A stretch of 64,000 nucleotides of DNA from an uncultured Gammaproteobacteria bacterium (GTDB lineage Bacteria; Patescibacteriota; Patescibacteriia; UBA11705; DATKZF01). The DNA is taken from the NCBI GenBank assembly GCA_964411255.1, contig CAYPKD010000001.1:7331-71330 (forward strand). The letters run 5' to 3'. Position numbers and translations under genes: made by a program. Shown in pieces: positions 5,161 to 25,924 of this stretch. Numbering within the stretch: the first letter of the stretch is position 1; each line of letters begins with the position of its first letter. The notes under the pieces were generated by a model that saw only the letters and a list, made by a program, of their open reading frames with translations, was not told the origin of the DNA and ran no database searches.

Positions 5161-6009
5161 TTATTTACCTATTAAACGTTTAGCTTTTTCTAAGGTGGCA
5201 AATTCAGCTTCGTCTAACGGTACTTCAACTGAGGTTGATCCGTTTTCTTTGTTGTCCAGTTTTACATCTATTGACCGTCGCAACACATGCCAGCCAACCA
5301 CATCGCCTTTACCCTGCCGAGTCTTTACTCTGGATCCAACTGGAGGAAATTTTTCAGACAAACTCTCATACAATTCCTTTTCATATGCCAGACAGCATTT
5401 CAATCTGCCGCAAAGACCTGACAGACGCTCTGATCCTCGGTGAGCGACCTGCTGCAAATCTGCCAGCTCTGAAGTTACATTTCCCAATTCCTTTAAAAAG
5501 GTTTTGCAGCAAACCGGCTGCCCGCAACAGCCAACATCACCCACCATCTTTGATTCGTCCCGAATTCCAAGCTGCTGCAATCGGATATTGGTCTTAAATA
5601 TTCTATTTAAGTCTTTTAATAAATCCCTAAAATCAACTCTGCCATCAGCAATAAAAGCAAAAGTTATACGCCCAAAATCAAGATGGATATGCACGTCAAC
5701 CAATTTTATTGGTAATTTATGCTTTTTTATTAATTGTTTGCAAACTCTTATTGCTTCTTTTTTCTTTTCTTTATTTTGAATAATACTATCTAAGTCCTGC
5801 TTGTCAGCTTTTCTCAAAACTTGTTTTATCTCTCCTAATTTTTTTTCATCCTCATCTGTCAATTCCTTTTTCTCCATAACCTTTCCTAAATCTAAACCAT
5901 GCTGTGTTTCTACCACAACATAATCATCAACATTCAGCTCAATCTTATTCGGATCAAAATAATAGACTTTATCCCAGGTGTTAAATTGTATGCCGACTAC
6001 TTTCTTCAT
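5161..6009 (-). CDS. ricT: PSP1 C-terminal domain protein (RicT/YaaT family)
   Basis: Cys cluster GCCGQPVCC ... LKCCLAYE characteristic of PSP1/YaaT. Confidence 0.75.
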   Translation of the reverse strand: MKKVVGIQFNTWDKVYYFDPNKIELNVDDYVVVETQHGLDLGKVMEKKELTDEDEKKLGEIKQVLRKADKQDLDSIIQNKEKKKEAIRVCKQLIKKHKLPIKLVDVHIHLDFGRITFAFIADGRVDFRDLLKDLNRIFKTNIRLQQLGIRDESKMVGDVGCCGQPVCCKTFLKELGNVTSELADLQQVAHRGSERLSGLCGRLKCCLAYEKELYESLSEKFPPVGSRVKTRQGKGDVVGWHVLRRSIDVKLDNKENGSTSVEVPLDEAEFATLEKAKRLIGK

Positions 6010-6110: not shown

Positions 6111-6698
6111 TTAAACCTCAAATCTTACAAAATTATCAATTTCAATCTTTTCTCCAATTTTAGCAATCTTTTCCTTAATCAAATCTTCAATGGTCAAGTC
6201 TTCGTCTTTTATAAAAGACTGCTTTAACAAACATACTTCCTCATACCATTTACTAAGCTTGCCTTCAACAATTTTATCAATCATATCTTCTGGCTTTGAT
6301 TCAGCTAAAAGCTGTTCCTTGTAAATTTCCTTTTCTTTATTCAAAACTTCTTCTGGTATATCTTCTGGTTTTAAATATAATGGATTAGTAGCGGCAATCT
6401 GCATTGCTAAATCTTTTGCCAGCGCCTGAAACTCTTCATTACGGGCTACAAAATCAGTTTCACAGTCTAATTCTACCATTGAACCTATTTTTTTATTTGG
6501 ATGAATATAAGAGTAAATAATGCCCTCTTTAGTTTCCCGTTCTGCTGACTTTTTTGCAGCCTTAAGCTCACCTTTTTTTCGAAGAACTTCCATTGCTTTA
6601 TCGACATCACCACCTGCTTCTTCTAAAGCATTCCTGCAGTCATTAATACCGCAGCCTGTTTGTTGCCGCAATTTCGCGACTTGTTGTAAGTCAACCAT
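6111..6698 (-). CDS. tsf: Elongation factor Ts (short form)
   Basis: N-terminal UBA-like MVDLQQVAKLRQQTGCGINDCRNALEEAGGDVDKAMEVLRKKG; EF-Ts dimerisation domain. Confidence 0.85.
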   Translation of the reverse strand: MVDLQQVAKLRQQTGCGINDCRNALEEAGGDVDKAMEVLRKKGELKAAKKSAERETKEGIIYSYIHPNKKIGSMVELDCETDFVARNEEFQALAKDLAMQIAATNPLYLKPEDIPEEVLNKEKEIYKEQLLAESKPEDMIDKIVEGKLSKWYEEVCLLKQSFIKDEDLTIEDLIKEKIAKIGEKIEIDNFVRFEV

Positions 6699-8989: not shown

Positions 8990-9030
8990 TAAAAAAGGAC
9001 GAAAATCTGATTTCGTCCTCAAAGTTTATT
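8990..9030 (-). terminator. Rho-independent terminator downstream of the GC-rich cassette
   Basis: Minus-strand hairpin GGACGAAATCAGATTTCGTCC followed by U-run. Confidence 0.45.
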
Positions 9031-9038
9031 TGCTTATT

Positions 9039-10154
9039 TTAATCAACTCCCAACGGAACTCTGACACTACCCAGAAATCCTTCTCGATCTCCTTCAGTGT
9101 CGCGTTTTGGTCCGTTCAGAATCTCACGAGCAATACCTTCGCTTACAAAATGGCAGACAATGACCGCAGCAGGTTCTTCTTCCCACTCGTCAAGCGACCT
9201 TTTGTCAAGCTCAAGGTCTTGCCTTACCCGAGCGCCAGCAGCCACACCCACTTGATCCATGTGCGCAGCAGATCTGGTGCGCCGAGCTTGGGCAGTAACT
9301 GATTTGGATCGTTTTTTCCCCATTAAAGCATGGCGCCTAACACCGCCAGATGATCTCAGGCCTAACCTGCGAAGCGGTGGACCGCCAAGATATTGCTCCC
9401 CAAAATCACGACTGCCCTTATCTGAGTCACCAAATAGAGAACATTTATATGTTGAATCCACTGAACTGCGAAAACGCGGCATCTCTCGACGCGGTTTTGG
9501 CTCTTTTGATCTGAAAAAGGCAAAGCCGAACGAAGGAACTCTGTCCCCACCCAGCACTGCAATTCCCACATCTTTTTTCAGCATTTCAGCCGTAAAGTAG
9601 AACTGCCTTACCTGGTCACCAACGCGGAATCCATCCCACCAAAGAATGTTTGGATGAGAAACGTAATTCTGCGCAGGCCACTTGAAATTGCATTCAGGGC
9701 AAAAACGCTCGCCTTCAAATGGGACACTGTGAATCGGACACTTTTCCCGATAATGCTCCAGCCGAAGCTTGTCCACTTTTTGGCCAGTAATCGGATTCAT
9801 GCCAGTGGTTGAAGGCACAATGGCTGCGAAAAATCCGCCATCATTATGCCGCCAGTCATACCACATACCAGGACCCTGGCCTTCATCGCTCATTGGCACA
9901 GGAATGAAATAGGCATCGCCTTTTTTGCTCCATTCACTGGGACAACCAGCGTATTTGTGAACTGGGTAAGCAGGGGCTACTACTCCAGGAGGCAGACCAT
10001 GAACCTGGTCTTTTTCTCCTTTTGAAGCCAGCCGCGGGGCAAACATGATCTTTGCATGATAACCTTCAGTTACCAGCTTGCCCGTTGCCTCAGGAAATTC
10101 CTGGCTGAACTGCCTGACCCATTGGATACATTCGTCGTGTGTCTTAAAATCCAT
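9039..10154 (-). CDS. Hypothetical protein, GC-rich (likely horizontally acquired)
   Basis: 371-aa ORF with much higher GC than flanks; GGAGG RBS 6 nt before ATG; CxxC-like CPIHSVPFEGERFCPEC; many spurious overlapping ORFs typical of high-GC coding. Confidence 0.55.
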   Translation of the reverse strand: MDFKTHDECIQWVRQFSQEFPEATGKLVTEGYHAKIMFAPRLASKGEKDQVHGLPPGVVAPAYPVHKYAGCPSEWSKKGDAYFIPVPMSDEGQGPGMWYDWRHNDGGFFAAIVPSTTGMNPITGQKVDKLRLEHYREKCPIHSVPFEGERFCPECNFKWPAQNYVSHPNILWWDGFRVGDQVRQFYFTAEMLKKDVGIAVLGGDRVPSFGFAFFRSKEPKPRREMPRFRSSVDSTYKCSLFGDSDKGSRDFGEQYLGGPPLRRLGLRSSGGVRRHALMGKKRSKSVTAQARRTRSAAHMDQVGVAAGARVRQDLELDKRSLDEWEEEPAAVIVCHFVSEGIAREILNGPKRDTEGDREGFLGSVRVPLGVD

Positions 10155-10209
10155 TGATCCCTCCTTTGGGACTTGGGGCTCCTGACGGAGCCCCAGGCTC
10201 TAGTCTGAA

Positions 10210-11253
10210 CTAGTAACGCTGATGACCGGCTTGATCATCATCCCGATGGAAAGGATCAGCATTCCGGCTGGGAGAGCTTGTCCGGCTGCGCGTTCCGATT
10301 TCCACTCTGAGAGTGGGAAGCTCATCGCGCGCCCTCAGTTCGTCAAACCGAACCTTGCTGCGGCGATAACGCGCGGCCAGCGCATCAAAACCTTTGGAGG
10401 CGATATTGAACAGACGATGCTGCGCATCCACATGTCCAGCATTGGCTTCGCGAGTCATGTTGACCGCAATATACACCAGCTGGCGGGCGGAAAGTTCCAC
10501 CTCGCCCCACTTGATGCCCGTATCGCTGCAAACTCCTGAACGAAGCGGCTTTTCATTGATCGGGCACATATCCACTAGATGGGCAGGATAGTCTCCGATA
10601 GCGAAAAGCTTGTAGGTCACGTCCTGATGGGTATAAAGCCCTTCAGCAACGTCATCAAATCCTTCGTCCAGCTCTTTCATGTACTGGGCAGTTGCTTCCA
10701 CACTGCCATCGCCTGTGGCAGTATCAAAGCAGATCACCAATTTTGTGCCATACGCACCACGCAGCAGACCAACAGCCGGATGCCTGGGCTTGGAGTGCAC
10801 CACCTTGAAATAGGTGGGCAAAAAGATGACAGGATCGATCAGCGAAGTGAGCGTATCGCCCATTCCTCCACCCTGACCTCCCATCAGAGCCAGCAAAGCC
10901 AGCATGTTGTCACCGCCGCTAATGCCCAAAGAGCTAAGAAAGCCCTCAGGCGATTCAGGATCAGCAGGCTTTTCAGCCTTTGACTCCTTGGCAGCAGGTT
11001 TGCTGGTAGAGCCAGCTTCCTCTCGGAACATCTTGGCCATTCGCTGAGCATGCATGGGCTTGAACCCAGCATTCTCAATGGACTCGAAAGTAACGCCGGC
11101 CAGGACTTCGAGACTGTCGCCTCCAGCCTGATCCAGCTTCTTCCACACCTGCAAGGGCGTCATTTTGGCAATCTCTGCTGCCTTTTCGAGCGCCTCCCTG
11201 TAGGCTTTGTCCAATTTTGCAAATGCCTTCTTGGAATAACCGTTCTTAGCCAT
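10210..11253 (-). CDS. Hypothetical protein, GC-rich, co-operonic with 9039..10154
   Basis: 347-aa ORF; 55-bp spacer holds perfect hairpin GGGGCTCC-tgac-GGAGCCCC; no recognised domain. Confidence 0.55.
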   Translation of the reverse strand: MAKNGYSKKAFAKLDKAYREALEKAAEIAKMTPLQVWKKLDQAGGDSLEVLAGVTFESIENAGFKPMHAQRMAKMFREEAGSTSKPAAKESKAEKPADPESPEGFLSSLGISGGDNMLALLALMGGQGGGMGDTLTSLIDPVIFLPTYFKVVHSKPRHPAVGLLRGAYGTKLVICFDTATGDGSVEATAQYMKELDEGFDDVAEGLYTHQDVTYKLFAIGDYPAHLVDMCPINEKPLRSGVCSDTGIKWGEVELSARQLVYIAVNMTREANAGHVDAQHRLFNIASKGFDALAARYRRSKVRFDELRARDELPTLRVEIGTRSRTSSPSRNADPFHRDDDQAGHQRY

Positions 11254-11356
11254 CTCTCTCTTCTCTCTTCTCCCCTTGCTTTCTCAAAAAATCTGCGATT
11301 TGCAAATCTTCTGCCTGATTCATAAAGGGCAATGAAATCAAGACCAGTAACCACTA

Positions 11357-11605: not shown

Positions 11606-11692
11606 GGGTCGGTACCAAAGCGGTCAACTGGGGCAGACTGTAAATCTGCTGGCCTTGTGCCTTCGGTGGTTCGAATCCGCCCCGGCCCACCA
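11606..11692 (+). tRNA. tRNA-Tyr(GTA), class II with long variable arm, CCA encoded
   Basis: Manual cloverleaf: acceptor GGGTCGG/CCGGCCC, anticodon loop CUGUAAA, T-loop GGTTCGAATCC. Confidence 0.85.
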
Positions 11693-13813: not shown

Positions 13814-13858
13814 TGGAGCCAACGAGCGGACTTGAACCGCTGACCTACTCCTTACCAT
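13814..13858 (-). pseudogene. 3' half of split tRNA-Thr(GGT) (anticodon loop to CCA); island right junction
   Basis: Reverse strand reads ATGGTAAGGAGTAGGTCAGCGGTTCAAGTCCGCTCGTTGGCTCCA; complements the 5' half at 25887..25924. Confidence 0.8.
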
Positions 13859-14024
13859 AAAACAACCCAACTACAAAACAACATAATTCACCTAAAGTAA
13901 GAGTAAAACCTTAACAATCTTACTCTTACAGGTGATTGCTTGGATGACCTGTTTACTACGGCTCTTTGCTCAGTTAGTATTACAATACTGCAATACTTAA
14001 TTTTTATGTTTTAAGCATAACATA

Positions 14025-14969
14025 TCAAATTAAATTTTCAAAGGTCAGTTTATTTGCCTTTGCTTTCATTACGTGAGTAGGTCTACAGCGAAGGTATATT
14101 GATGTCATTTTAATCCCCTTATGCCCTAGTATTTGTTGCAACTCTGAAATATCATAACCTTGATTTATACAATTCATGGCGAACGTATGACGAAACATAT
14201 GGGCATGAAATTTAACACCAGATTCATCATTTAATCTCTTTATCATATGTTTCACTCCATCTTTTGTGAATCTTGAATTATGAGTAGAAGAGATGAAAAA
14301 ATATGGAGAAGTATTCTTAGTTTTTTTCCTCTCTTCTAAATAATCCTTTAATATCTGGAATAATTTAAGATTCATATTAACTATTCTATCATGACCTGTT
14401 TTTGAGGTTTCACCCCTGACAAACACCTCCATTCTATCAAAATCAATATCATCAAGACGTAAACTCACTAATTCATTAAGTCTTAAACCGCAAAAAAGAA
14501 AAGTAGCTACTATGGCATAATTACGTTTTCGCAATAAACTATTCTTCCAATCAATATTGATTAAAACTGCTGAAATAATTTTATCAATATCATCTTTCTT
14601 AATAAATTTTTTATCTAGATACTCAACCTTAGGTGCTTTTATGTACATAAAAGGATTATGGTCAATATATTTTCTTATCCTTAACCAATCAAAAAACCGA
14701 CTCAGTTTACTTCGATAAGTAGCAATCGTACTATTCTTTACTCCGACTTTAATTCCACCCTTTCCTACTAGTCTTTTACGTTTTTGTAAATGTTCAAAAA
14801 ATATATTCATAACCTCAGGTGTTATCTTATCTAAAGATAAATTCGGTATGAGTTCACTTAAAAGCTTAAAAGATGATTCATACCCTCTTATAGTAACTTC
14901 TGAAAGTCCCAAAGAATAACGCGATTCTCTGACAAACTCCTCAAAAAGCTCATTAAGATTCTTTTTCAT
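14025..14969 (-). CDS. Tyrosine recombinase / phage-type integrase
   Basis: C-terminal HxxR...Y motifs (FRHTFAMNCINQGYDISELQQILGHKGIKMTSIYL); next to right junction. Confidence 0.85.
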   Translation of the reverse strand: MKKNLNELFEEFVRESRYSLGLSEVTIRGYESSFKLLSELIPNLSLDKITPEVMNIFFEHLQKRKRLVGKGGIKVGVKNSTIATYRSKLSRFFDWLRIRKYIDHNPFMYIKAPKVEYLDKKFIKKDDIDKIISAVLINIDWKNSLLRKRNYAIVATFLFCGLRLNELVSLRLDDIDFDRMEVFVRGETSKTGHDRIVNMNLKLFQILKDYLEERKKTKNTSPYFFISSTHNSRFTKDGVKHMIKRLNDESGVKFHAHMFRHTFAMNCINQGYDISELQQILGHKGIKMTSIYLRCRPTHVMKAKANKLTFENLI

Positions 14970-15579
14970 TGCTCTCAGTTTCTTGATTTTCTTCTATTTT
15001 CTTTGTTTTAGCAATTATTTGGTCAATTACATCTGATATTTCACTCCTATCTTCTTCGCTCATTTCGTCCAATTGCTCGCTTGCTTTGTCCCACATTGAA
15101 TTTTCATTTCTACTTTTTAACCAATCAGTGATTAAAGTTATTTTGCTAAAATTGTGTTGTCCCATATCCCATCCATTAAAAGACGCATAGTCCTTAAGCA
15201 TCTTCATCAAAATCTTTAAGGCTTTCTCCTTCTCGCCTTTGACCCAAGATTTTGCAATATTTTTCTCACTAATTAAATCTGTCATCTGCTCAATCGTTGT
15301 TTCCATCTGCGCGCCCAGTATCCCGCGCAAGCTTAAGGTATCCTCTATATCCTTTAAGTTATTTGGCTGGTTCTCCTTGTAATAAGAAGAAATGTCCCGC
15401 TCAACTGTGCGAAGAGTTACCTCACCCCAGCCACGATGTTCAGCCATAGTATTTAATCTTTTTTTGACGGTTTCATTAGAAAAACCATTTAATTTAAGCA
15501 TTATCGTGGTATCACGACGTGCTCTTAGCAGAGATGCAGGAATTGATTTCCTGCCTGTTGTCTTTTTGACTTCTGTCAT
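14953..15579 (-). CDS. Hypothetical island protein (208 aa), overlaps integrase start
   Basis: ORF only; acidic C-terminus. Confidence 0.45.
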   Translation of the reverse strand: MTEVKKTTGRKSIPASLLRARRDTTIMLKLNGFSNETVKKRLNTMAEHRGWGEVTLRTVERDISSYYKENQPNNLKDIEDTLSLRGILGAQMETTIEQMTDLISEKNIAKSWVKGEKEKALKILMKMLKDYASFNGWDMGQHNFSKITLITDWLKSRNENSMWDKASEQLDEMSEEDRSEISDVIDQIIAKTKKIEENQETESNEKES

Positions 15580-15851
15580 ACTTTTTTAAGTTAATTTTTA
15601 AATACCGGCGTTTACGACATTCTCTAAATACAAAAAAACACAGAACGGCGATTACAACCGGGCAAAATACAAAAAATTGTATTTTTAGTTTGCCCTAGAT
15701 GGTTATAGTCAAAATTCTGTGCTTTTAAATTAAGCTGTTGGGACTATGTATGTTCTAGTACTTAGATTGTTAATGTATATTTAAATGGTAATATCAATTC
15801 TTAATCATGTCAATACCCCATGTTGATAAGAGTTAACAAAGTTGAAAAAGT

Positions 15852-16610
15852 TTATTTTTCTGTCTTTGTATTTCTAGAATCTACATAACTACAATAATCA
15901 CATTCTGAACCGGCTTTTGGAATTTTCTTACTTCTCAAAGTTTTATGTATATCTTTAATAGTCTGCTCAAGCCATTTATCGCTACCCTTATACGGAATCA
16001 ATACTATTTCAAATTCTAATTTTGCATCAAACGCTTCTCTATCTTTACGGCCATTGCAATAAACAAAATAACCCATATTTGATACTTTCAAGCCATTCAT
16101 CCTTAATAACCACTGATAAATCTCCATTTGCCTTTTATAGCCATCCATCCAAGGCTTATCAAGTTTAGTAACTGGTTCTTGCTTACTGGTGGCCTTATAG
16201 TCAACGACTATGTACTTACCTTTTGAATCCTGCCATAAATCATCAATTGCTCCTGTAATAATAAAATTAGTTGGTTCATGTAAATACTGAACACCCTTAA
16301 AATTTTCTCGCCAAACATCAAGATTATCATGAGCCACTGGTTTTGCATCAACCTTATACTTCTTTAATAATGGATGTTGTTTATTTTTACTTCTATGTTC
16401 ATCGAATTCTTTCTTTAGTAATTCATCAACTGTAGAATTCAATGCAAATGGAAATCCCGGTGGTCTGCCAACTCCCAATTTTCTATCAAGATAAAAACAT
16501 CTTGGACAATCCAAAAACAAATCTATCTTTGAACGAGATATCTTAAACGGCTTTTTTGACTTTGGGTCGTAAAGATTTTTTGTTCGTTGTGAATTGTAAT
16601 ATTGGGACAT
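15852..16610 (-). CDS. PD-(D/E)XK nuclease, Cas4/RecB-like, with Cys clusters
   Basis: GAIDDL ... VVDYK ... QMEIYQW (D-EXK-QxxxY) plus N-terminal DCPRC and C-terminal ECDYC cysteines. Confidence 0.55.
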   Translation of the reverse strand: MSQYYNSQRTKNLYDPKSKKPFKISRSKIDLFLDCPRCFYLDRKLGVGRPPGFPFALNSTVDELLKKEFDEHRSKNKQHPLLKKYKVDAKPVAHDNLDVWRENFKGVQYLHEPTNFIITGAIDDLWQDSKGKYIVVDYKATSKQEPVTKLDKPWMDGYKRQMEIYQWLLRMNGLKVSNMGYFVYCNGRKDREAFDAKLEFEIVLIPYKGSDKWLEQTIKDIHKTLRSKKIPKAGSECDYCSYVDSRNTKTEK

Positions 16611-16614
16611 ATTA

Positions 16615-17463
16615 TTATTGTCTTTCGTTTTTATCTAATGTATTACCCTCTTCATCTTTCCATTCTTTCCACCCATTAGCACGACGTGCAAGAATAACAG
16701 CGGCAGCAGCACTAGGACTATTAAAAATATAGTTCTTTACAAATTTGTAAGAATCCTCGCCTTCTTTTTCTATTACTCCATCCGCTAATAATCTCTCCAC
16801 CATTCCCTCAACCCAAGTACCAGCAGTTTTTGTTAGCTTTCTTCTTGTTATGGAGTCACTATACACAACTAATCCCTCATCTGAATATTTCCCTTTAGCT
16901 TTTGCTGATGGGCCTTTGCAGTAATAAATCTTTTCAGATTCATCAATAATATTAATATCATCAAAAATCGGATATCCTAAAGTAGCTACCAAAAGCTCAA
17001 TACTTCCAAAAAAATCCATAACATCAGCCACATCAGTTTCTGGTAGTTGTGTTTTTGCCGGAATAGTACCATTTACAACATTACATCGATTTAATTTCTG
17101 AGCAATATCATAACAATACCCTTCTAAATATTTCACGTGGGCTTTATTAATTGAGTTATTTGTACTAACAAAACACAATGCAATATTCCAAAAATCTTTA
17201 CCTTCATCTTTGTTATGCTGTAATAATCTTTTATACACCTGTTCTGCCTCTCCAATGTATACATCGGGAATATTTGAATCAATTTCTTTTCCTATCAGAA
17301 AATAAAGCCCAACAGTTTTTAATTCATCGCGACTTGCCGCTTCCTTAATTTTATTTCTTGGCACCAAAATTGCTTTAGCAACACGACCACCAATCTCTGC
17401 AATTTTAACACCAGAGGGGGTGCCGTCAGCTAATAAAATTTTAATTGTTTTAGGATTTTTCAT
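16615..17463 (-). CDS. GIY-YIG nuclease-like N-domain with DUF4357-like C-domain (hsd-associated)
   Basis: GLYFLIGKE...VYIGEAEQVYKRLLQH resembles GIY-YIG; abuts DUF45 gene and Cas4-like gene. Confidence 0.55.
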   Translation of the reverse strand: MKNPKTIKILLADGTPSGVKIAEIGGRVAKAILVPRNKIKEAASRDELKTVGLYFLIGKEIDSNIPDVYIGEAEQVYKRLLQHNKDEGKDFWNIALCFVSTNNSINKAHVKYLEGYCYDIAQKLNRCNVVNGTIPAKTQLPETDVADVMDFFGSIELLVATLGYPIFDDINIIDESEKIYYCKGPSAKAKGKYSDEGLVVYSDSITRRKLTKTAGTWVEGMVERLLADGVIEKEGEDSYKFVKNYIFNSPSAAAAVILARRANGWKEWKDEEGNTLDKNERQ

Positions 17464-17464
17464 A

Positions 17465-17785
17465 TTAATTTATACAATATTTATTTAATCTCAATTCTAA
17501 CTTTTCATATTCACCTAAATACGACGACATTCTGCTTTTCCATAATTTACTATGATTCGGGGTATGAAAATGAAGTAATTCATGAACGATCACATACTCT
17601 CCCAAATCTCGCTCAATTTCTAGGAGCTCAACGTTAAAATTCAGATTTCCATTAGTTGAGCAAGAAGCCCATTTATTTTTCATTGGACGCAAATACAAGC
17701 ACCTTATTTTAATGCCAATCTTATCAGCAAAAAAATAGACACGCTCTTTGAATTCAGCTTTATTTGTCCAACAATTAGATATCAT
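17465..17785 (-). CDS. DUF45/M48-like metal-dependent hydrolase, short (106 aa; YgjP-like, possibly truncated)
   Basis: HELLHFH (HExxH); overlaps hsdR stop, a common hsdR-adjacent partner. Confidence 0.5.
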   Translation of the reverse strand: MISNCWTNKAEFKERVYFFADKIGIKIRCLYLRPMKNKWASCSTNGNLNFNVELLEIERDLGEYVIVHELLHFHTPNHSKLWKSRMSSYLGEYEKLELRLNKYCIN

Positions 17786-20699
17786 AAGCTTTTGAAATTA
17801 GTCTAAATAATTCTTCAGCCACTTTTGTTGCCTTTTCTATATCGTCTTCTTCTGCCAGTATCGCATAATAAATCTCTGCACGAAGTTTTCTCAAAGCTTC
17901 AGTACTTTGTTTCCAAGTTTGATGCTCTACAAATGCCTCCTTAATCTTATCAGTAACAATATCTGGCTGAGGAATCTTATGTTGTTCGATTAATTGATTT
18001 ACAAAATAAGTTAAACTATCAAACCCTTTTTCTGCCTGTTTCTTTCGACGTTCAATATCTTCTTCGTATAACTTTCGAAGTTCTTCCAAGGTTTTCTTTG
18101 TTGTTAATTGCCGAGACTCATATCTTTCCTTAATTTCTTCAGCTCTTTCCAACAATGAAATCAAGAAAAGGTCATCGCTTTGTTCTTCTGCTATTTTCTC
18201 GATGGATTTTATTAAATTGATAATTCTAACATTATCATCTTCATGCTTAGCTTTAATTTTCTCGATTGATTTCTTATTAATTTCGTAAAATTCAGACTGA
18301 GTTTCCAATTTTTCCAAGCCTACATGCTTTTGAACCAGTTGATTTGTTTTTCTCTGAAATTCTCTATCAATGTAAACTTTTTTTGCATAGGCATTTCGAA
18401 CAATTCCATAGATTGCTGATAACGTGCCATAATCATCAATGTATGGTCTCAAAAAAGCATCTGGGGAGATAATCTCATAAAGCATTTCAATCTCTTTATA
18501 GAGTTTGAAAAACTTTTTACGTTTTTCTGCATCACGGAAATGCTCTATTAACTTATCTGTATCCTTATCATCAAACTTTTTAGAAACCAACTTCAAATAT
18601 GAAGCAGCCTCTTTCTTCATCTTTTTTTCAAATTGTTTTTTCAATAATCCTAAGTCTTTAACTACTGCATCTATCTCATCACTATCAAAAGCTAATGCTT
18701 TTTCAACTTTATCGAAAATTCCGATAAAATCTAATACAAAACCATGCGGTTTAAGCATATTATGTTCTTCATTCTCATAAGGCCGATTTACACGCGCAAT
18801 AGCTTGTAAAAGCGTATGATCACGCATTGGTTTATCAAGATACATTGCATACAGAATTGGTGCATCATATCCTGTTAAAAGCTTTTCTGTGACAATAAGA
18901 ATTTTGGGCTGTTCTCCATATTTAGTAAATTTCTTTCTAATCTCTCTTTCCCTTTGTTCATCATGATGAAATTCTTTTAATAATTTAGAATCATTGTTAT
19001 TACCAGTATAAACAACTTCTGAATATTCCTTTGGTAAATATTTATCTAGAGCTTTCTTGTAATATGCACAAGCTTCTCGGTCTACTGCAACAAAAAATGC
19101 TTTATAGCCTAAAGGCTCCACATTTTCTTTGAAATGTTCAGCTGCATATTTTGCCACTGCATCAATTCTTTTTTCTCCTTTTAGAAAATTTTTAATATTA
19201 ACTGCTCTTTCAAGGACTTTATTCAATTCTTCAATCTCTGTTATTCCATGAGCATCTGCAAGTTGCAAAAATTCTTCTTCCAATGTTTCTTTTGGCACTA
19301 AAAGTTTATTTGGAGCAATACTATAAAATAAGGGCAACGTAGTACCGTCTTCGATACTATCAGCAATAGAATACTTATGAAGATAACCCTTTTTATCTTC
19401 AAGACCAAATGTCTTAAATGTTCCTTTTCCATATACAGTCTTATCAATAGGTGTCCCAGTGAATCCTATAAAAGATGAGTTCGGTAATCCTGCCATTAAG
19501 AAATTCCCTAAATCACCTTGAGTAGTCCTATGCGCTTCATCAATAAGCACAAAAATATTTTCTCGAGTATTGATATCTGCAGGCATTTTCTGAAATTTGT
19601 GAATTGTCGTTACAATAATTCCTCGATAATCATCTTTAAGTAATTTATTAAGCTTTCGAATAGAAGTTGCATGTTCAACATTATTCAATCCAACCGAGCT
19701 TAAATTTGTTATCATTTGCTGCTCTAGTTCATTACGATCAATCATAAGCAAAATAGTAGGTTTATCTGATTCTGGAGCTTTGAATAATAATTCGGCGACT
19801 TTAATCATTGTATAAGTTTTTCCTGAACCTTGAGTATGCCAAACCAAACCACGTCTTTTGGTTTTATTATGAGCGCGTTTAATAACTTCTTCAACTGCCT
19901 CTTGTTGGTGTTGCCTAAGTATGTATTTATTCAACTCTTCATCTTTCTCTGCAAACATTATGTATTTACCCAACACATCCAATATCTGACGTTTATCGCA
20001 AAATGTTTTAATTTTAGATTCTAACTTACCGATTTCTTTTTCTTTCCAATTAAAAATATTCCTTCTAATTAAATTCCATGTTACCCCATAGCTAAAACCA
20101 ATACTTTCCGTTGCTGTAAATATTTGCTCTGGTACAAATAACTCAGGTGTTTCATTATGATATCGACGTAATTGGTCGATTCCAATTGCAACCGCCTCGT
20201 CCTTGGTTGCGTTTTTACATTCAATAACAAGAACTGGAATACCATTAATTAAAAAAACAACATCCTCTCTGTTAGCATACTTGCCATTAAAATAATAAAA
20301 TTCCTCAGTCACTTCAAACACATTATTACTGAACTTATCGTAATCAATCAGATTAAGATTTAATTCTCTATTCTCACCTTCGTGAAAAAATGTTTTGTCT
20401 CCTCTTAAATATTGTACAAATTCACGATTACCATAGATATCTGGAGTTAATGCTGAAAAACGACGAATAAGGTCATCAATATTATTATGAAAATGAGGAT
20501 TAAATTTATTAACTTTTTCATGAAGGATACCCTGAAAATAAAGAGAAGCAGTTTCAGCTCTGTCGCGAGGTGAAACTCCTTGGGGGTCAAAACCACGGCG
20601 TTCTTCAGCCTCTTTTTGGCCAACATACTTCCATCCAATTTCTTGGGCGTATTTAAGTATCCTAGCTTGTACTGATTTTTGCTCTGTTGGTTTAGACAT
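17775..20699 (-). CDS. hsdR: Type I restriction enzyme R subunit
   Basis: 974 aa; SF2 helicase motifs TQGSGKT, DEAH (VLIDEAHRTTQG). Confidence 0.9.
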   Translation of the reverse strand: MSKPTEQKSVQARILKYAQEIGWKYVGQKEAEERRGFDPQGVSPRDRAETASLYFQGILHEKVNKFNPHFHNNIDDLIRRFSALTPDIYGNREFVQYLRGDKTFFHEGENRELNLNLIDYDKFSNNVFEVTEEFYYFNGKYANREDVVFLINGIPVLVIECKNATKDEAVAIGIDQLRRYHNETPELFVPEQIFTATESIGFSYGVTWNLIRRNIFNWKEKEIGKLESKIKTFCDKRQILDVLGKYIMFAEKDEELNKYILRQHQQEAVEEVIKRAHNKTKRRGLVWHTQGSGKTYTMIKVAELLFKAPESDKPTILLMIDRNELEQQMITNLSSVGLNNVEHATSIRKLNKLLKDDYRGIIVTTIHKFQKMPADINTRENIFVLIDEAHRTTQGDLGNFLMAGLPNSSFIGFTGTPIDKTVYGKGTFKTFGLEDKKGYLHKYSIADSIEDGTTLPLFYSIAPNKLLVPKETLEEEFLQLADAHGITEIEELNKVLERAVNIKNFLKGEKRIDAVAKYAAEHFKENVEPLGYKAFFVAVDREACAYYKKALDKYLPKEYSEVVYTGNNNDSKLLKEFHHDEQREREIRKKFTKYGEQPKILIVTEKLLTGYDAPILYAMYLDKPMRDHTLLQAIARVNRPYENEEHNMLKPHGFVLDFIGIFDKVEKALAFDSDEIDAVVKDLGLLKKQFEKKMKKEAASYLKLVSKKFDDKDTDKLIEHFRDAEKRKKFFKLYKEIEMLYEIISPDAFLRPYIDDYGTLSAIYGIVRNAYAKKVYIDREFQRKTNQLVQKHVGLEKLETQSEFYEINKKSIEKIKAKHEDDNVRIINLIKSIEKIAEEQSDDLFLISLLERAEEIKERYESRQLTTKKTLEELRKLYEEDIERRKKQAEKGFDSLTYFVNQLIEQHKIPQPDIVTDKIKEAFVEHQTWKQSTEALRKLRAEIYYAILAEEDDIEKATKVAEELFRLISKAYDI

Positions 20700-21942
20700 A
20701 ATTATTAATATTTTGGAAATTAATCATATTAACTCTAATCTGATTACTCATAAGTTTATCTAATATAGAATCAAATAGATTCATATAGCAATTTTTCTTC
20801 GATCTTAATAAAATAAGTTTTTTATCAATTGCGCTTAAAGATTGTGAGATACTGGACTGTTCGGATTTATTTGGAAGAGGCACCTTTTGATTTTTCACAT
20901 CATTATCCCTTACAGCTGGATAACTTGCTCCTCTTTGCAAACTCCCTATGGATTTAATAAAATTTTCAGTTAACAAATATTGAAATAAAAAATTATGTTC
21001 AATTTTTTCAGGATTCACTCTGAGGACACAATAGCCAGTACTACAAACCTCATTATCTAATTCAGAAGGAATCACAGCTATTCTCTTCAGGGTGGGTCTT
21101 ACTGTAGCAAAAATTATGTCATTTTCTTGCACTTGTTTTTTTGCTCGACTTGGAGCATCTTTACCAAGAATATTGCTAGTATCTTCTATTTGAAATGATT
21201 CATTAGACACACTTGAAACATCTATGTATTTGAAAAATTCGTTGGGTTTCTTTTTGGGCTCCACATTTGATGTTTTTAATAATAAAGATTTTATTGTTAC
21301 CAAATCCCAACTCTCTGGAATGAAACCAATTTCAGTTTCTTTTTGTCTCTCTCCTTTTGTCCCTTCAGTAAATAGTTTTTGCATTAATACATTCTTAAGT
21401 TCAGTCGTTTGCGCAATAAGTTCATTCTGCATTTCAATTGATTTTTGTATTACTGACAAAATATATGCAATGTTTTTTTGTATACTACCTTCCCACAAAG
21501 GAATTTGAATATTCTTAAAATCTGATTTCTTAAAAAAACCACGAGTTGTTTCTGAATTTCTCTCGATAAATTCTTGAATTGAAGACAAGAGGTAGAAGTA
21601 TAAAAATTTAGGGTTCAACTCTTTATTCCCAGGTGTTACTTTCCACATATTTTGGTTTAATAATGCTGGTAGGATATCTCTCGGTATCATTGTCATTTTA
21701 CCTCTTGTTGCACCCACCATAACAATTAAAATATCTCCTTTATTCAATAAATACTTTGCATATTTTTTTGAAAAATCTTGAGGTAAATATTCAACATCTC
21801 CCAAATTAATTTGTCCCCCCTCCAAAATATTCACAACTCTAAAATTAAGAATACCGCTATCTACGTAGTCCTTGCTCTTGAATGCAAAACCATTTGTAAC
21901 ATCACATTCTTTTCCGATTGTACTATATTTAGTATTACTCAT
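20692..21942 (-). CDS. hsdS: Type I R-M specificity subunit
   Basis: 416 aa, two target-recognition-domain halves separated by conserved spacers; overlaps hsdM and hsdR. Confidence 0.8.
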   Translation of the reverse strand: MSNTKYSTIGKECDVTNGFAFKSKDYVDSGILNFRVVNILEGGQINLGDVEYLPQDFSKKYAKYLLNKGDILIVMVGATRGKMTMIPRDILPALLNQNMWKVTPGNKELNPKFLYFYLLSSIQEFIERNSETTRGFFKKSDFKNIQIPLWEGSIQKNIAYILSVIQKSIEMQNELIAQTTELKNVLMQKLFTEGTKGERQKETEIGFIPESWDLVTIKSLLLKTSNVEPKKKPNEFFKYIDVSSVSNESFQIEDTSNILGKDAPSRAKKQVQENDIIFATVRPTLKRIAVIPSELDNEVCSTGYCVLRVNPEKIEHNFLFQYLLTENFIKSIGSLQRGASYPAVRDNDVKNQKVPLPNKSEQSSISQSLSAIDKKLILLRSKKNCYMNLFDSILDKLMSNQIRVNMINFQNINNYV

Positions 21943-23488
21943 ATCCTAATTTAGAAAGAATCTCCGACATTTCTTTATCGATGTTTTTTGATTCTTTTTC
22001 AATTTCTTTTAATTCCAATACAATTTCTTTGATTGGTTTATGCTCAGCATCATCTGAAATATGTATGTATCGGCTTGGAGAAATATTGTAATCATTTTTA
22101 ATAATTACATCTTTATCAATAAATTCTGAAAATTTCTCGATTTCTTCAAATTTATTAAAAGTATTAGCAATTTTTTCTATTCCTTCATCAGTAATGTAAT
22201 TCTTTGGGTCACCTTTTTTGAATTCTTTAGAAGCATTTACTAAAAAAACTTTGTCTTTATGCTTTTTATTTTTATTCAAAAATAGAATAATACCTGGAGC
22301 AGTAGTATTGTAGAAAAGATTCTCTGGCAAATACAAAACACCTTCCAGTAAATCATTATCTACAAAGTAAGCTCGAGCTTCTTTTTCTTTATTTGTATTT
22401 GCATTTCCTGAACCTCGTGATGCTGCGCCTGTATCAAGTACAATTGCGGCTTTACCAGAATTATTCAAACTAGCCCAAATGTGCTGAACCCAAGCCCAAT
22501 CAGCATTACCACCTGGATTCTTTTTGAAGCGCTCAAAATGGTCATCATTGTAAAAATTATCACCCAAATACGGTAACGAATCCTTTCCTTGATTCCACAT
22601 AGGATTGGCTACCACTCTATTAAATTTCTTTAATTTCCCTTTATCGAGAAATTTAGGGCTTTTCATCGTGTCTCCTATCTCAATATCACCCTCCATGTCA
22701 TGCACAATCATATTCATTTTTGCCATTGCCCAAGTATCTCCTACAAACTCTTGTCCATACAATTTCAATGGTGCAACCTTCTTTTTTCCATTATGCTTTT
22801 GTTGCATTACAATTTGATTTTTAATAAGTAGGCCGCCGCTTCCGCAGGTTGGGTCATAAATATCCATTCCCGGCTCTGGTTCCATTATTTTTGCCATAAT
22901 CAACCCAACTTCAGTAGGGGTATAGAACTCTCCAGCACTTTGGCCGCTATTTTCTGCAAATTTTCTAATAAGATACTCATAACTTCGACCAATGATATCT
23001 GGTTCGACATCTTCCAGACCTAAACGCTTCTGGCTAATCCTTTCAATTAGATTAGACAATCTATCATCTGGAATATCTCGTTGACCATGTGTAGTTGCAT
23101 TAAAATCGACCCGGTCAATAATCCCAGATAAAGAAGGATTTTCTTTAGCAATACCTCGAAGCAAATTTGTTAACTGCTCTCCAACATTACTAGATATTTT
23201 TCGTATTGCTGACCAAACCTCATCTGTGTCTGGATTCAGTGGAATTAAAGGTAGATAATATCGAACTAATTTCCTATCTTTTTCAATTAGTGCAAAAGCC
23301 TTTCTTCTGCCTCCTACTTTCATTGCAATGCGATTTACTTCATCATCGAATACGTCACAAAGCCTTTTAACAAAAATTAGAGGCAAAATATAGTCTTTAT
23401 ACTTTGCGGCATCCTTTGCTCCACGAATAGAGCAGGCTGCATCCCATATCCATGATTCTAATGATTTTCCATTGTTATTTTTTGTCAT
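21935..23488 (-). CDS. hsdM: Type I R-M DNA methyltransferase subunit (N6-adenine)
   Basis: HsdM N-domain; motif I DPTCGSGGLL; motif IV reads NPMW rather than canonical NPPF. Confidence 0.9.
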   Translation of the reverse strand: MTKNNNGKSLESWIWDAACSIRGAKDAAKYKDYILPLIFVKRLCDVFDDEVNRIAMKVGGRRKAFALIEKDRKLVRYYLPLIPLNPDTDEVWSAIRKISSNVGEQLTNLLRGIAKENPSLSGIIDRVDFNATTHGQRDIPDDRLSNLIERISQKRLGLEDVEPDIIGRSYEYLIRKFAENSGQSAGEFYTPTEVGLIMAKIMEPEPGMDIYDPTCGSGGLLIKNQIVMQQKHNGKKKVAPLKLYGQEFVGDTWAMAKMNMIVHDMEGDIEIGDTMKSPKFLDKGKLKKFNRVVANPMWNQGKDSLPYLGDNFYNDDHFERFKKNPGGNADWAWVQHIWASLNNSGKAAIVLDTGAASRGSGNANTNKEKEARAYFVDNDLLEGVLYLPENLFYNTTAPGIILFLNKNKKHKDKVFLVNASKEFKKGDPKNYITDEGIEKIANTFNKFEEIEKFSEFIDKDVIIKNDYNISPSRYIHISDDAEHKPIKEIVLELKEIEKESKNIDKEMSEILSKLGYE

Positions 23489-23499
23489 AAAATTAAAAA

Positions 23500-23676
23500 T
23501 TAATTCTGACTCTCCTGAATAAACTTCTGGAGGTCTTTTTCACTAATTCGCCATTGACCAATCTTAGATGCCTTTAAGCGTCCTGATTCAATATACCGTG
23601 TTACAGACCTTTCGCTTACTCTAAGAATCTCTGCCACTTCTTTTAATGTTAGTAATTTTTCTTTAGTCATAAGCAT
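23500..23676 (-). CDS. Excisionase/AlpA-like helix-turn-helix DNA-binding protein (58 aa)
   Basis: Manual translation MLMTKEKLLTLKEVAEILRVSERSVTRYIESGRLKASKIGQWRISEKDLQKFIQESQN; below ORF-track size cutoff. Confidence 0.55.
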   Translation of the reverse strand: MLMTKEKLLTLKEVAEILRVSERSVTRYIESGRLKASKIGQWRISEKDLQKFIQESQN

Positions 23677-23767
23677 TTGTTATTACTAATATTGTAACTA
23701 ATTAAAAGCGATGTGTCAAAATTTGTCATGTTTTGACATATAGGTTTAATTTGAGTAAAGTAATGGT

Positions 23768-24748
23768 ATGAGCAAACAAACTACAACAAAAAGAAGTCAT
23801 TATCTTCCCAAAACTTACCTAAAGCATTTTCTTTTGGATGATGCTTTGTTTATGTATATGAAAGGGAAAAAATTTTTTGATGAAGAAAAAACACCCGCGG
23901 AAAGAATATTAAAGGTTGGGGGTGAAGATGGGCTAACAAATATTGGGTTGAAAAATAATTTGTATAATCCCGAAATTGATGGTATTTCCAGTGATGATAT
24001 GGAGGAGATATTCAGAGGATATGGGGAGGACTACTACAATGAATTGATATATGATATTAGCAAGTTAGATGACCAAGCTTTAATACCAGAAATAATAAAA
24101 TCAAAATTAGCTTATTTTCTAGCTTCAATGCGTGTACGAACACCTCAATTCAAATCAGAAACTGAAGAAATGGACACCGCATTTAGAAAGCATTTCTCTA
24201 AAAGACATTTTGAACTAATTAACCCTGAGGAAATAGTTGAAGTAAGTAAAAAAGAATTTTCTAATGAAATAAGCCTGGAAGAAGCTAATAAGATAAAGGA
24301 CTGTATTGTTAAACAAGAATATGATCTTAAATATCCCAATGGCTTTTTTATTCAAATGGCCCTTATGATGATAAATCACTATGCTGACATTTTCCATCAA
24401 ATGACTGTAAGCATAGTAAAGTCTGATGGGCGATATTTTGTAACTTCTGATAATCCAGTAGTATATTTCGTTCCTCCTGAGAAAGTAAATTTCTATCATC
24501 CCCCTAAAGCACTTGTAAGTCCATTTACAGAATTATTTTTTCCACTGACAAAAGACTTAGCGGTAACTTTAAATTGGAGAAAGAATGAAGAGCGAATAAC
24601 CAAAACATCAAGGGCAATAGTTGAGATATTTAATAATAACATTACTCACCATTCTTTCGACTTTATTTTTTCACCAATTCAAATGAAAGCACTAAACAAG
24701 TTTACAAAAGAACACATACCTTATCCATTCAAAATTAGGGTTAGCTAA
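23768..24748 (+). CDS. DUF4238-like protein
   Basis: N-terminal HYLPKTYLKHF matches the DUF4238 signature start; only plus-strand gene in island. Confidence 0.5.
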   Translation: MSKQTTTKRSHYLPKTYLKHFLLDDALFMYMKGKKFFDEEKTPAERILKVGGEDGLTNIGLKNNLYNPEIDGISSDDMEEIFRGYGEDYYNELIYDISKLDDQALIPEIIKSKLAYFLASMRVRTPQFKSETEEMDTAFRKHFSKRHFELINPEEIVEVSKKEFSNEISLEEANKIKDCIVKQEYDLKYPNGFFIQMALMMINHYADIFHQMTVSIVKSDGRYFVTSDNPVVYFVPPEKVNFYHPPKALVSPFTELFFPLTKDLAVTLNWRKNEERITKTSRAIVEIFNNNITHHSFDFIFSPIQMKALNKFTKEHIPYPFKIRVS

Positions 24749-25656
24749 TAATCATCAAGTGGATGTTTTCTAATCTGGGACCGTAAATGCTCTGCTGAAG
24801 CAGCCAGATAAATCGTCGTTGTCTTGATGTCCGCATGCCCCATCATTCTAGATAAAGAATAAATATCACATCCTCCCTCCAACATCAACGTCGCAAATGT
24901 GTGGCGTAGTTTGTGAATCGTAAACGGAATCTCTGACGAATCACGAATTTTTTCAACTAGTCTTTTAATACCTGAGTCAGCAAATCCGCAATTTCTGTTT
25001 AATGAAGCAAAAAATTCTGGGCAAGTCTTTTTCAGACGTTTGCGTTCTATTAAATATTTTTCTAAACTTTCAGCCAATTTTGAACCTATTGGTATAATTC
25101 TGTCTTTACTTCCCTTTCCCTGATAAACAAATATAGACATATTTTCTAAATCAACGTCAGATAACTTTAATTTTATCAATTCTCTTTTTCTGAGCCCAGC
25201 AAATAGAAATACTGAAAATATTGCATGATTTCTGTATCTGAGATATCGATACTTATACGGGTAGTTATAGACCACTTCCAGTAATCTATTAGCTTCTTGC
25301 CTTGATAACTTGGGAGGTAGTTTCTTTTCAAGCTTTGGGACTTCAATATCCTCTGCAAAATTTTGTTCAAGATGACCTTCTTGAACACACCACCTGAAAA
25401 ATACCAAGAGACTCTTATGATAAGTTATGAACGTGTTTGTGCTCCAATCTCTTTGAGTTCTCCCATCATAAAAAAACTTTCTGACATTGGTTTCATTTAC
25501 TTCTGATATTTTTTTTATTTCTGAAAGACTGCAATACAAATTGATACATACTCTGTATCTTTTAATTGTGTCGCCTGAATACCCCCTGATATAGCTTGAG
25601 TATTCACAAAACTGTTTGCCTAAATTTTTTATCAACATAAAAATACTGCCTTTCAA
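24745..25656 (-). CDS. Tyrosine recombinase / integrase (second)
   Basis: HKLRHTFATLMLEGGCDIYSLSRMMGHADIKTTTIYL; adjacent to island tRNA-Thr and left junction. Confidence 0.85.
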   Translation of the reverse strand: MKGSIFMLIKNLGKQFCEYSSYIRGYSGDTIKRYRVCINLYCSLSEIKKISEVNETNVRKFFYDGRTQRDWSTNTFITYHKSLLVFFRWCVQEGHLEQNFAEDIEVPKLEKKLPPKLSRQEANRLLEVVYNYPYKYRYLRYRNHAIFSVFLFAGLRKRELIKLKLSDVDLENMSIFVYQGKGSKDRIIPIGSKLAESLEKYLIERKRLKKTCPEFFASLNRNCGFADSGIKRLVEKIRDSSEIPFTIHKLRHTFATLMLEGGCDIYSLSRMMGHADIKTTTIYLAASAEHLRSQIRKHPLDDY

Positions 25657-25672
25657 TTGCAGTATTTCTAAA

Positions 25673-25748
25673 TGGAGCCGTCTTCGGGACTTGAACCCGA
25701 GACCCCCACCTTACCATGGTGGTGCTCTACCAGCTGAGCTAAGACGGC
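25673..25748 (-). tRNA. tRNA-Thr(GGT), intact, island-borne
   Basis: Reverse strand GCCGTCTTAGCTCAGCTGGTAGAGCACCACCATGGTAAGGTGGGGGTCTCGGGTTCAAGTCCCGAAGACGGCTCCA folds to canonical cloverleaf. Confidence 0.85.
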
Positions 25749-25886
25749 AAATTTGGTTTGCTGGTCAGACCTATAAAGCTTTATAAGTCGGTTAGCCGAC
25801 GACCTGTTTAGTAATAGAGATGGGGTCTATTATTAACAATTTAGCTAGTATTAGCGTAAAGAGTTAAAATTCATATGACCTGTTTA

Positions 25887-25924
25887 TTACCATGGAGTTG
25901 CTCTACCAACTGAGCTACGTTGGC
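25887..25924 (-). pseudogene. 5' half of split tRNA-Thr(GGT); island left junction
   Basis: Reverse strand GCCAACGTAGCTCAGTTGGTAGAGCAACTCCATGGTAA; acceptor GCCAACG pairs with CGTTGGC in the 3' half at 13814..13858. Confidence 0.8.

Follow-up and report, generated by a model that had tools for sequence, protein, structure and literature searches.

A tRNA gene divided by an integrative island

The 64-kb stretch of contig CAYPKD010000001.1 analyzed here (64,000 nt, hereafter the window) contains three tRNA genes recognized by ARAGORN, the sole threonine tRNA among them being an intact tRNA-Thr(GGT) at 25673–25748 on the minus strand. This gene lies inside an island of 12,035 bp (window 13859–25886 plus one 7-bp core), which divides a second tRNA-Thr(GGT) gene at its anticodon loop. 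Read along the minus strand, the island runs from the junction attL through a 138-nt spacer, the intact tRNA, a hairpin with a T run and the gene of the tyrosine recombinase Int1 to a DUF4238 gene on the opposite strand and an HTH_17 gene. These are followed by hsdM, hsdS, hsdR, the genes of a YgjP-like protein, a DUF4357/PDC-S14 protein, a Cas4-like nuclease and a 208-aa protein, a second recombinase gene, Int2, and the junction attR.

The 5′ half of the divided gene forms the attL junction (25887–25924, minus strand) and comprises the acceptor strand GCCAACG, the D arm, the anticodon-stem strand ACTCC and the loop ATGGTAA. These 38 nt occur once in the window as an exact match, 138 nt upstream of the element-borne tRNA and on the same strand. 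Past ATGGTAA the likeness to a tRNA is lost, and attL reads on as TAAACAGGTCATATG. The 3′ half was located 12 kb from the 5′ half by a search for T-arm and acceptor patterns (13814–13858, minus strand; ATGGTAA-GGAGT-AGGTC-AGCGG-TTCAAGT-CCGCT-CGTTGGC-T-CCA). Both halves are fully complementary in the acceptor (GCCAACG/CGTTGGC) and anticodon stems (ACTCC/GGAGT), and removal in silico of the intervening DNA together with one ATGGTAA yields a 76-nt gene with all stems paired, which ARAGORN reports as tRNA-Thr(GGT). The direct repeat of the insertion is therefore the 7-nt anticodon loop itself, read directly from the minus strand at 25887–25893 (attL core) and repeated at 13852–13858 (attR core). 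Neither ARAGORN nor Rfam detects a tRNA at either island junction. As the rejoined halves give a complete tRNA with all stems paired, the initial annotation was accurate in describing a split host gene whose acceptor (GCCAACG) differs from that of the intact copy (GCCGTCT); its placement of the intact gene within the insertion, between the integrase and the left junction, is confirmed as well, at 138 nt inside the junction at 25887. That the island disrupted a native gene and brought its own tRNA-Thr(GGT) is, in our judgment, practically certain.

The host origin of the split gene is indicated by exact matches of its 38-nt 5′ half in three species-representative metagenome-assembled genomes (MAGs) from the Niyogibacteria, the Parcubacteria group and the Saccharibacteria. 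In these three MAGs the 5′ half runs into an intact tRNA-Thr(GGT) adjoining a tRNA-Tyr, and each shows one Thr(GGT) gene, with no tandem second copy in the 8 kb around it. This identity to intact genes of the Candidate Phyla Radiation (CPR) marks the split gene as native and as typical of CPR tRNAs. Homologues of the genes neighboring the island are annotated as Patescibacteria or Parcubacteria, and the same island is found at the same site in several independent metagenome assemblies. For a neighboring 188-aa gene, homologues in six relatives (63–76% identity) show no conserved synteny and no tRNA nearby.

Two Logan contigs from different samples, L008 (end 3406) and L009 (end 3317), stop exactly at the final nucleotide of this core in attL (window 25887), and a third begins 30 nt before it. 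Such ends fit a branch in a de Bruijn graph, which could stem from coexisting empty-site alleles or from other CPR species sharing the identical 5′ half. They were not counted as evidence of excision, since contigs cross attR unbroken in the same samples and the 5′ half is identical elsewhere in the CPR.

The element-borne tRNA and the recurrence of its module

The intact gene matches the Rfam tRNA model over its full length (65.8 bits, E=4.5e-12) and reads GCCGTCT-TA-GCTC-AGCTGGTA-GAGC-A-CCACC-ATGGTAA-GGTGG-GGGTC-TCGGG-TTCAAGT-CCCGA-AGACGGC-T-CCA. It thus has the acceptor GCCGTCT/AGACGGC and an encoded CCA end, contains the core ATGGTAA itself and is free of introns. It ends 34 nt upstream of the Int1 start codon (25638), which is abutted by a terminator-like hairpin (ATACTGC, 9 nt, GCAGTAT) and its T run (25639–25665, minus strand, likewise read off the sequence). 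Most related loci have a hairpin and T run at this position; in the window, the 9-nt loop kept the hairpin from being called by the consensus terminator scan. Pressed against the start of Int1, hairpin and T run leave no space for a ribosome-binding site; the arrangement is conserved in the family and suggests that Int1 is expressed through read-through from the tRNA or by leaderless translation.

A metagenome scan with Int1 returned 41 loci with close relatives (numbered with the prefix L), and the 420 nt upstream of each Int1 start were read. In about 25 of them a complete tRNA-Thr(GGT) ends 31–48 nt before the Int1 start and is followed by the hairpin and T run. A second, truncated 5′ half of a tRNA-Thr(GGT) stands 150–210 nt further upstream in 17 related loci; its final bases are ATGGTAA (in one locus TTGGTAA), and next to them stands TAAACAGGTC or a sequence close to it. 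The truncated halves vary among loci, with at least nine acceptor sequences, whereas most of the complete genes are of type GCCGTTG. Two shorter elements could be delimited at both ends. In L020 (about 3.9 kb) the 5′ half at 296–333 (GCCGATG/ACTCC) matches a 3′ half at 4263 (GGAGT...CATCGGC), and in L026 (about 4.8 kb) the 5′ half at 1360–1397 (GCCAACA/CTCCC) matches a 3′ half at 6172 (GGGAG...TGTTGGC). The former carries an IS1595 transposase and a P63C protein, the latter an ABC-F ATPase and a radical-SAM/PqqD enzyme, and both share with the window island only the tRNA and Int1. What elements of such different cargo conserve is the unit of attP, tRNA-Thr(GGT) and Int1, which makes the tRNA a part of the element.

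Could a functional tRNA have been rebuilt from the 3′ half of the element copy and the 5′ half of the host gene? Such chimeras contain mismatches in 12 of the 17 loci; the window chimera has three among its seven acceptor pairs and two among its five anticodon-stem pairs, that is, 5/12 stem pairs.

The element tRNAs themselves bear the marks of a maintained structure. In a gapless alignment of 20 distinct copies, 420 of 420 stem cells are paired, a figure inflated by the extraction, which demanded paired acceptor, anticodon and T stems, so that full pairing is partly built in. Changes on both sides occur in 13 of the 21 pairs, covariation amounts to 0.49 against 0.116 in shuffled alignments (0/500 reach the observed value), and slid controls give 31–50% pairing. 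Compensatory changes of this kind, which keep the cloverleaf foldable, would be expected of a gene in use. G1-C72, C2-G71 and the GGU anticodon, which are identity elements for the threonyl-tRNA synthetase of E. coli, are kept in all element copies, and in the window the host and element tRNAs share U73 and the encoded CCA. Among the Thr codons of the host open reading frames (ORFs) in the window, ACU accounts for 36.0% and ACC for 15.6%, together 52%, and so there is a demand for a GGU reader.

The initial annotation had also proposed that the tRNA came in with the element and that the element may complement the tRNA it destroyed, should GGT be the sole Thr isoacceptor for ACC/ACU. The former gains support from the tRNA in about 25 Int1 loci and from the elements in L020 and L026, the latter from the family-wide recurrence, the matching anticodon and the compensatory changes in the element tRNAs.

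Attachment site and recombinases

The attL core is abutted by the decamer TAAACAGGTC (25877–25886, minus strand, exact match), probably a recombinase half-site. A second copy at 25801–25810 (minus strand, in the context TAAACAGGTCGTCGG) lies 52 nt upstream of the element tRNA and is probably an accessory binding site; it is conserved at this position in related loci. The third copy is found at 13946–13955 (minus strand), 87 nt inside the attR core. The decamer has exactly these three copies in 64 kb, each near an island end, and in most related loci the core is likewise followed by this box or one resembling it. The core-adjacent box sets AGGTC 5 nt past ATGGTAA, and the tRNA variable loop (GGAGT-AGGTC) has the same spacing, so that the likeness of attP to attB extends past the 7 identical bp into the right half of attB. 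Ahead of its core, attR reads ...GGGTTGTTTT, which is not a tRNA segment, nor is TAAACAGGTCATATG after the attL core. Joined in silico, the junctions become GAGCAACTCCATGGTAAGGAGTAGGTCAGCGG for attB and GGGTTGTTTTATGGTAATAAACAGGTCATATG for attP.

Int1 is a 297-aa Xer-like tyrosine recombinase (24745–25638, minus strand; Pfam Phage_integrase, 3.8e-30) in which the catalytic residues R150, H242, R245, H268 and Y277 are present. Int2, also Xer-like and assigned through Pfam, has 314 aa and is encoded at the far end of the island (14025–14969, minus strand); the two are 33% identical (BLASTP). The NCBIfam scores of Int1 stay below the equivalog cut-offs for XerA (184.3 vs 220), XerC (177.2 vs 335) and XerD (176.6 vs 330), and those of Int2 are lower still; archaeal XerA provides the closest solved structures to both. 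Int1 has more than 2500 homologues, and the best 120 are all of about 297 aa and 65–73% identical. Both recombinases presumably catalyze the integration, and their action as a pair, in the manner of XerC/XerD, can be put forward as a speculation.

Genes resembling Int2 (39–47% identical to it) accompany Int1 in many loci and in three arrangements. They directly follow Int1, in convergent orientation, in L024, L027, L029, L030, L031, L045, L051 and L056; they stand at the far end in the window and probably in L018; and they lie upstream of Int1 in L032, L048, L035 and L081. In this last arrangement the order is Int2, an ATGGTAA or TTGGTAA core with no tRNA half at its left, tRNA-Thr(GGT) and Int1 (L032 4656–6885; L048 2467–6888; L035 3144–5561; L081 8489–10891). 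By its context this core is an unrecombined attP, and the loci represent unintegrated modules. Circularization of the window island in silico gives the same order, Int2-attP-tRNA-Int1, with Int2 just upstream of attP, which explains why a recombinase is found at both ends of the island.

One of these loci, L081, lies in a 5.18-Mb contig beside a Replic_Relax gene and a third integrase, and the family therefore extends beyond genomes of CPR size. Int1 relatives at a greater distance (about 60–64% identity) are associated with other tRNA pieces, and a complete tRNA next to the integrase is missing: in L038 the piece is a truncated, tRNA-like 5′ half whose loop reads CUUUUAA (~5770–5830), in L047 a tRNA 3′ half starting at a CUUAAGG loop (~1790–1840) and in L042 a tRNA-Thr 3′ half starting at ATGGTAA (5826–5870). 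These relatives may restore their target tRNA in the canonical way or have other targets. Downstream of an Int1 homologue, a LOOT RNA (Rfam RF03000) was detected on the plus strand of L017 (7226–7348, 87 bits) and L033 (4219–4334, 86 bits), against a gathering score of 46.4; the window has none.

Serial replacement, by which a new element would enter the tRNA of an older one, was considered in view of the reciprocal tRNA types of L017 and L019. It is unsupported, since none of 14 disrupted halves has element boxes or cores within 330 nt upstream.

Group-I-like introns in the tRNAs of related elements

An insert of 187–222 nt follows U36 of the element tRNA (ATGGT^AA) in 15 related loci and splits the 7-bp core. 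Intron-bearing loci include L017 (5693–5960), L018 (249–516), L021 (248–529), L024, L027–L030, L034–L036, L039, L041 and L048; these tRNA genes were missed by ARAGORN. In each of the 14 distinct inserts the exon GGU pairs with an insert GCC, a U.G pair marks the splice site (14/14) and the terminal nucleotide is G (14/14). The helices follow the order P1, P2, P3, P4, P5, P6, P7, P3′, P8, P7′, P9, with a P3/P7 pseudoknot. In this structure, partly derived from the same 14 sequences, 95.6% of the cells are paired, and compensatory changes affect 28 of the 51 pairs; the observed covariation is reached by 0/500 shuffles. The inserts are thus described as group-I-like introns and candidates for self-splicing. 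Their identification through the Rfam model RF00028 was rejected, as it gave no match to the inserts at E<=1 or E<=10. Because the intron splits the core, it could shield the tRNA gene of the element from related integrases, and a protective role of this kind is proposed as a hypothesis.

Island cargo and surroundings

Apart from its integration module, the window island is a small composite defense island. The genes of HsdR, HsdM and HsdS stand together at 17775–23488, all on the minus strand, and make up a type I restriction-modification system: hsdM (21935–23488; Pfam N6_Mtase/HsdM_N; PADLOC MTase_I), hsdS (20692–21942; Pfam Methylase_S; PADLOC Specificity_I) and hsdR (17775–20699; Pfam HSDR_N/ResIII; PADLOC REase_I). 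Upstream of them, a 58-aa HTH_17 protein (23500–23676, minus strand; Pfam 9.8e-18; PADLOC mad1) is a candidate excisionase or mad1-like restriction-modification controller, and the DUF4238 protein next to Int1 (23768–24748, plus strand; Pfam) is listed by PADLOC as DUF4238-Pers. Downstream, again on the minus strand, follow the YgjP-like gene (17465–17785), the DUF4357/PDC-S14 gene (16615–17463; strong match to PADLOC PDC-S14, DUF4357 3.8e-98), a Cas4-like PD-(D/E)XK nuclease outside any CRISPR context (15852–16610) and the 208-aa protein, which has no known family (14953–15579).

Phage structural, virion, lysis or repressor genes are absent among the 12 island ORFs. A phage origin was rejected: viral contigs yielded no element tRNA and no close Int1, the family is absent from IMG/VR, and the sole match to an attP/attL-type pattern in viral contigs is a chance match inside a coding region.

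Outside the island, the stretch 9000–11300 has a G+C content of 49–54% against about 33% elsewhere in the window; it contains two ORFs (9039–10154 and 10210–11253, minus strand) with no Pfam family, adjoins a tRNA-Tyr (11606–11692) and may be a separate foreign segment.

Proposed mechanism and alternative explanations

The arrangement at the locus is best explained by an integrative island of 12,035 bp that has recombined, within the anticodon loop, with the native tRNA-Thr(GGT) gene of its host. As attP and attB have in common only the loop ATGGTAA and, 5 nt further, AGGTC, an identity so short leaves the host gene as two dead halves, rebuilt at neither junction. Integration at attP would open the recombination module Int2-attP-tRNA-Thr(GGT)-Int1, parting the tRNA and Int1 from Int2 and placing them at opposite ends. 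The element tRNA (G1-C72, C2-G71, GGU, U73) would then take over the decoding of ACU and ACC. Since the crossover falls mid-gene, an element with just a 3′ half would depend on its pairing with the 5′ half of each host, and carrying the whole gene presumably removes this constraint. Loss of the island other than by precise excision should cost the cell its tRNA-Thr(GGT). That the element tRNA functionally replaces the native one appears to us very probable; it implies, as we infer, expression and charging of the element tRNA and a host devoid of any other tRNA-Thr(GGT).

Several points weigh against replacement, in addition to the bias in the pairing figure mentioned above. The host may possess a second tRNA-Thr(GGT), or a tRNA-Thr(UGU) that reads all four ACN codons. 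The scan for consensus promoters and terminators around the element tRNA returned nothing on the minus strand, and thus no promoter for this tRNA, and no empty-site allele of this species was recovered. The choice of the recombinase that acts at the core is drawn solely from gene position, and L020 and L026 have no Int2, which makes Int2 frequent and not universal. Structural failure is seen in only one of about 25 loci, L033, where the tRNA is a chimeric copy with mismatches. At L033 223–~510 (cf. L034 3147–3431) the 5′ exon is host-type (GCCGCGG/CATCC, as in the disrupted half) and the 3′ exon element-type (GGAAG...CGACGGC), a combination due either to recombination between two nearby 5′ halves or to an assembly artefact.

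The best surviving alternative, albeit an unlikely one, is that the tRNA is ordinary accessory cargo, kept for codon supply or as a spare against anticodon nucleases, in a host that decodes ACY through another tRNA-Thr(GGT) or tRNA-Thr(UGU). Mobile elements often bear tRNAs for other reasons (PMC10865867), and the window island is otherwise a defense island. However, the anticodon is exactly that of the destroyed gene in each of about 25 loci, the tRNA sits within the integration module and not among the variable cargo, and only one Thr(GGT) is seen in CPR-type loci whose host-type gene is intact.

Somewhat less probable still is a mainly cis-acting role, in which the tRNA gene would serve as a transcription unit or processing signal for Int1, or as a secondary attachment site, and not mainly as a decoder. 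The conserved spacing of tRNA, hairpin, T run and ATG (31–48 nt in all loci) and the presence of the core ATGGTAA in the element tRNA would suit such a role. Yet it requires neither the upkeep of four stems, the Thr identity pairs and the anticodon through compensatory changes, nor that of a spliceable intron of the self-splicing type. A cis-acting role can also coexist with replacement.

Very improbable is the notion that the host's native gene is the intact one and that an old tandem duplicate or a rearrangement left the two halves behind, with nothing essential disrupted by this island: tRNA-Thr genes do occur clustered, and in L018, L021, L029 and L030 the disrupted half has the stems of the neighboring complete gene, but the window halves are 12 kb apart, perfectly complementary and bounded by a 7-bp direct repeat, the complete tRNA travels with Int1 into genomes with differing disrupted halves, unintegrated modules carry the tRNA and attP with no tRNA half, and in L020 and L039 the disrupted half lies in a native Tyr/Thr(UGU) tRNA cluster.

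Replacement of the native tRNA can be extended to a broader reading, which we offer only tentatively and consider less likely than not to hold in all its parts. The window island would belong to a very large family, present in CPR/Patescibacteria and some other bacteria (more than 2500 Int1 homologues, mostly 60–73% identical), whose module Int2-attP-tRNA-Int1 always destroys the tRNA-Thr(GGU) gene of the host in its anticodon loop and supplies a copy of its own; a self-splicing group-I-type intron within the core (ATGGT^AA), carried by about half of the family, would confer site immunity. Integration would then be independent of the host tRNA sequence, and the cell could not easily lose the island, a form of tRNA addiction.

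The genomes of CPR bacteria are tiny and their tRNA sets minimal, and an island that replaces an essential decoder therefore becomes part of the translation apparatus. Replacement could explain the fixation of defense and other cargo in such genomes, while integration regardless of the host tRNA sequence would open a route to a broad host range. The intron-bearing variants, in turn, suggest a link between tRNA introns and the protection of attachment sites. A compact module of attP, tRNA and one or two small recombinases could also serve as an integration tool in otherwise intractable organisms. Finally, the range of tRNA-dependent integration, shown so far only in actinobacteriophages, would come to include islands that are not phages and recombinases of the Xer-like type.

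Comparison with known systems

The introns of the related elements can be set beside those of other bacteria. Bacterial group I introns occur in tRNA anticodon loops, as in cyanobacterial tRNA-Leu(UAA) and tRNA-fMet, Azoarcus tRNA-Ile and Agrobacterium tRNA-Arg. The relatives' introns, which the window lacks, resemble them in the site after an anticodon-loop U, the U.G pair closing P1, the terminal G, the P1–P9 topology with its P3/P7 pseudoknot, and a length of about 190–220 nt with no ORF. They differ in residing in the tRNA-Thr(GGU) of a mobile element and in being unmatched by RF00028.

With XerA and XerC/XerD, Int1 and Int2 share size, domain layout, best NCBIfam and PDB matches, and the encoding of two paralogous recombinases together. 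Unlike these, they fall below every equivalog cut-off and are encoded in a mobile island between att sites, not at a housekeeping locus.

Canonical tRNA-targeting islands and prophages, whose crossover falls in the anticodon loop or at the 3′ end and which carry a 3′ segment of the tRNA, offer a further comparison. The tycheposons of Prochlorococcus also use tRNA-Thr(GGT), where an att site of about 40 nt restores the gene and partial 3′ copies are left behind (bioRxiv 10.1101/2020.12.28.424599). Like them, the window island is small and site-specific, with variable cargo in its family (often for defense or niche functions) and a tyrosine recombinase beside a tRNA. Canonical islands, however, carry a tRNA segment in attP, whereas the element flanks at attL and attR of the window are not tRNA-like; the island restores nothing, and both the 5′ and the 3′ half are left dead. 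Among the more distant Int1 relatives (about 60% identity), the canonical kind may be represented by L042, which has a Thr 3′ half only, and by L047 with its tRNA 3′ half.

The closest parallel is the "tRNA-dependent lysogeny" described and tested in mycobacteriophages and Gordonia phages (Fionnbharth, LeBron, Gaia and other actinobacteriophages; Guerrero-Bustamante & Hatfull 2024, PMC10865867). In these phages a tyrosine integrase acts at a core of 8–17 bp, the host tRNA is not reconstructed, and lysogens are viable only with a phage tRNA of the same anticodon; as a likely further case, prophage Lj965 of Lactobacillus johnsonii is named (PMC10865867). The island shares with them an attB in a host tRNA, predicted element-coded recombinases of the tyrosine family with a Phage_integrase domain and the catalytic residues, a short core (7 bp), the lack of a functional tRNA at attL and attR, and an element tRNA with the anticodon of the disrupted gene, likewise in about 25 related loci.

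The differences are equally clear. The island does not qualify as a temperate phage, and its cargo consists of restriction-modification and defense genes; its host is of the CPR/Patescibacteria type, and its target is tRNA-Thr(GGU) and not Lys, Ile2 or Leu. Its recombinases are small, Xer-like, devoid of an arm-binding N-terminal domain and often paired (Int1 and Int2), its tRNA lies directly between attP and int, and many relatives have a group-I-like intron. Experimental proof that the tRNA is required exists only for the phages. Within the limited literature that could be searched, no report of this behavior was found for non-phage islands or for CPR bacteria. The island is a non-phage variant of the known tRNA-dependent integration, found in CPR bacteria and equipped with Xer-like recombinases.

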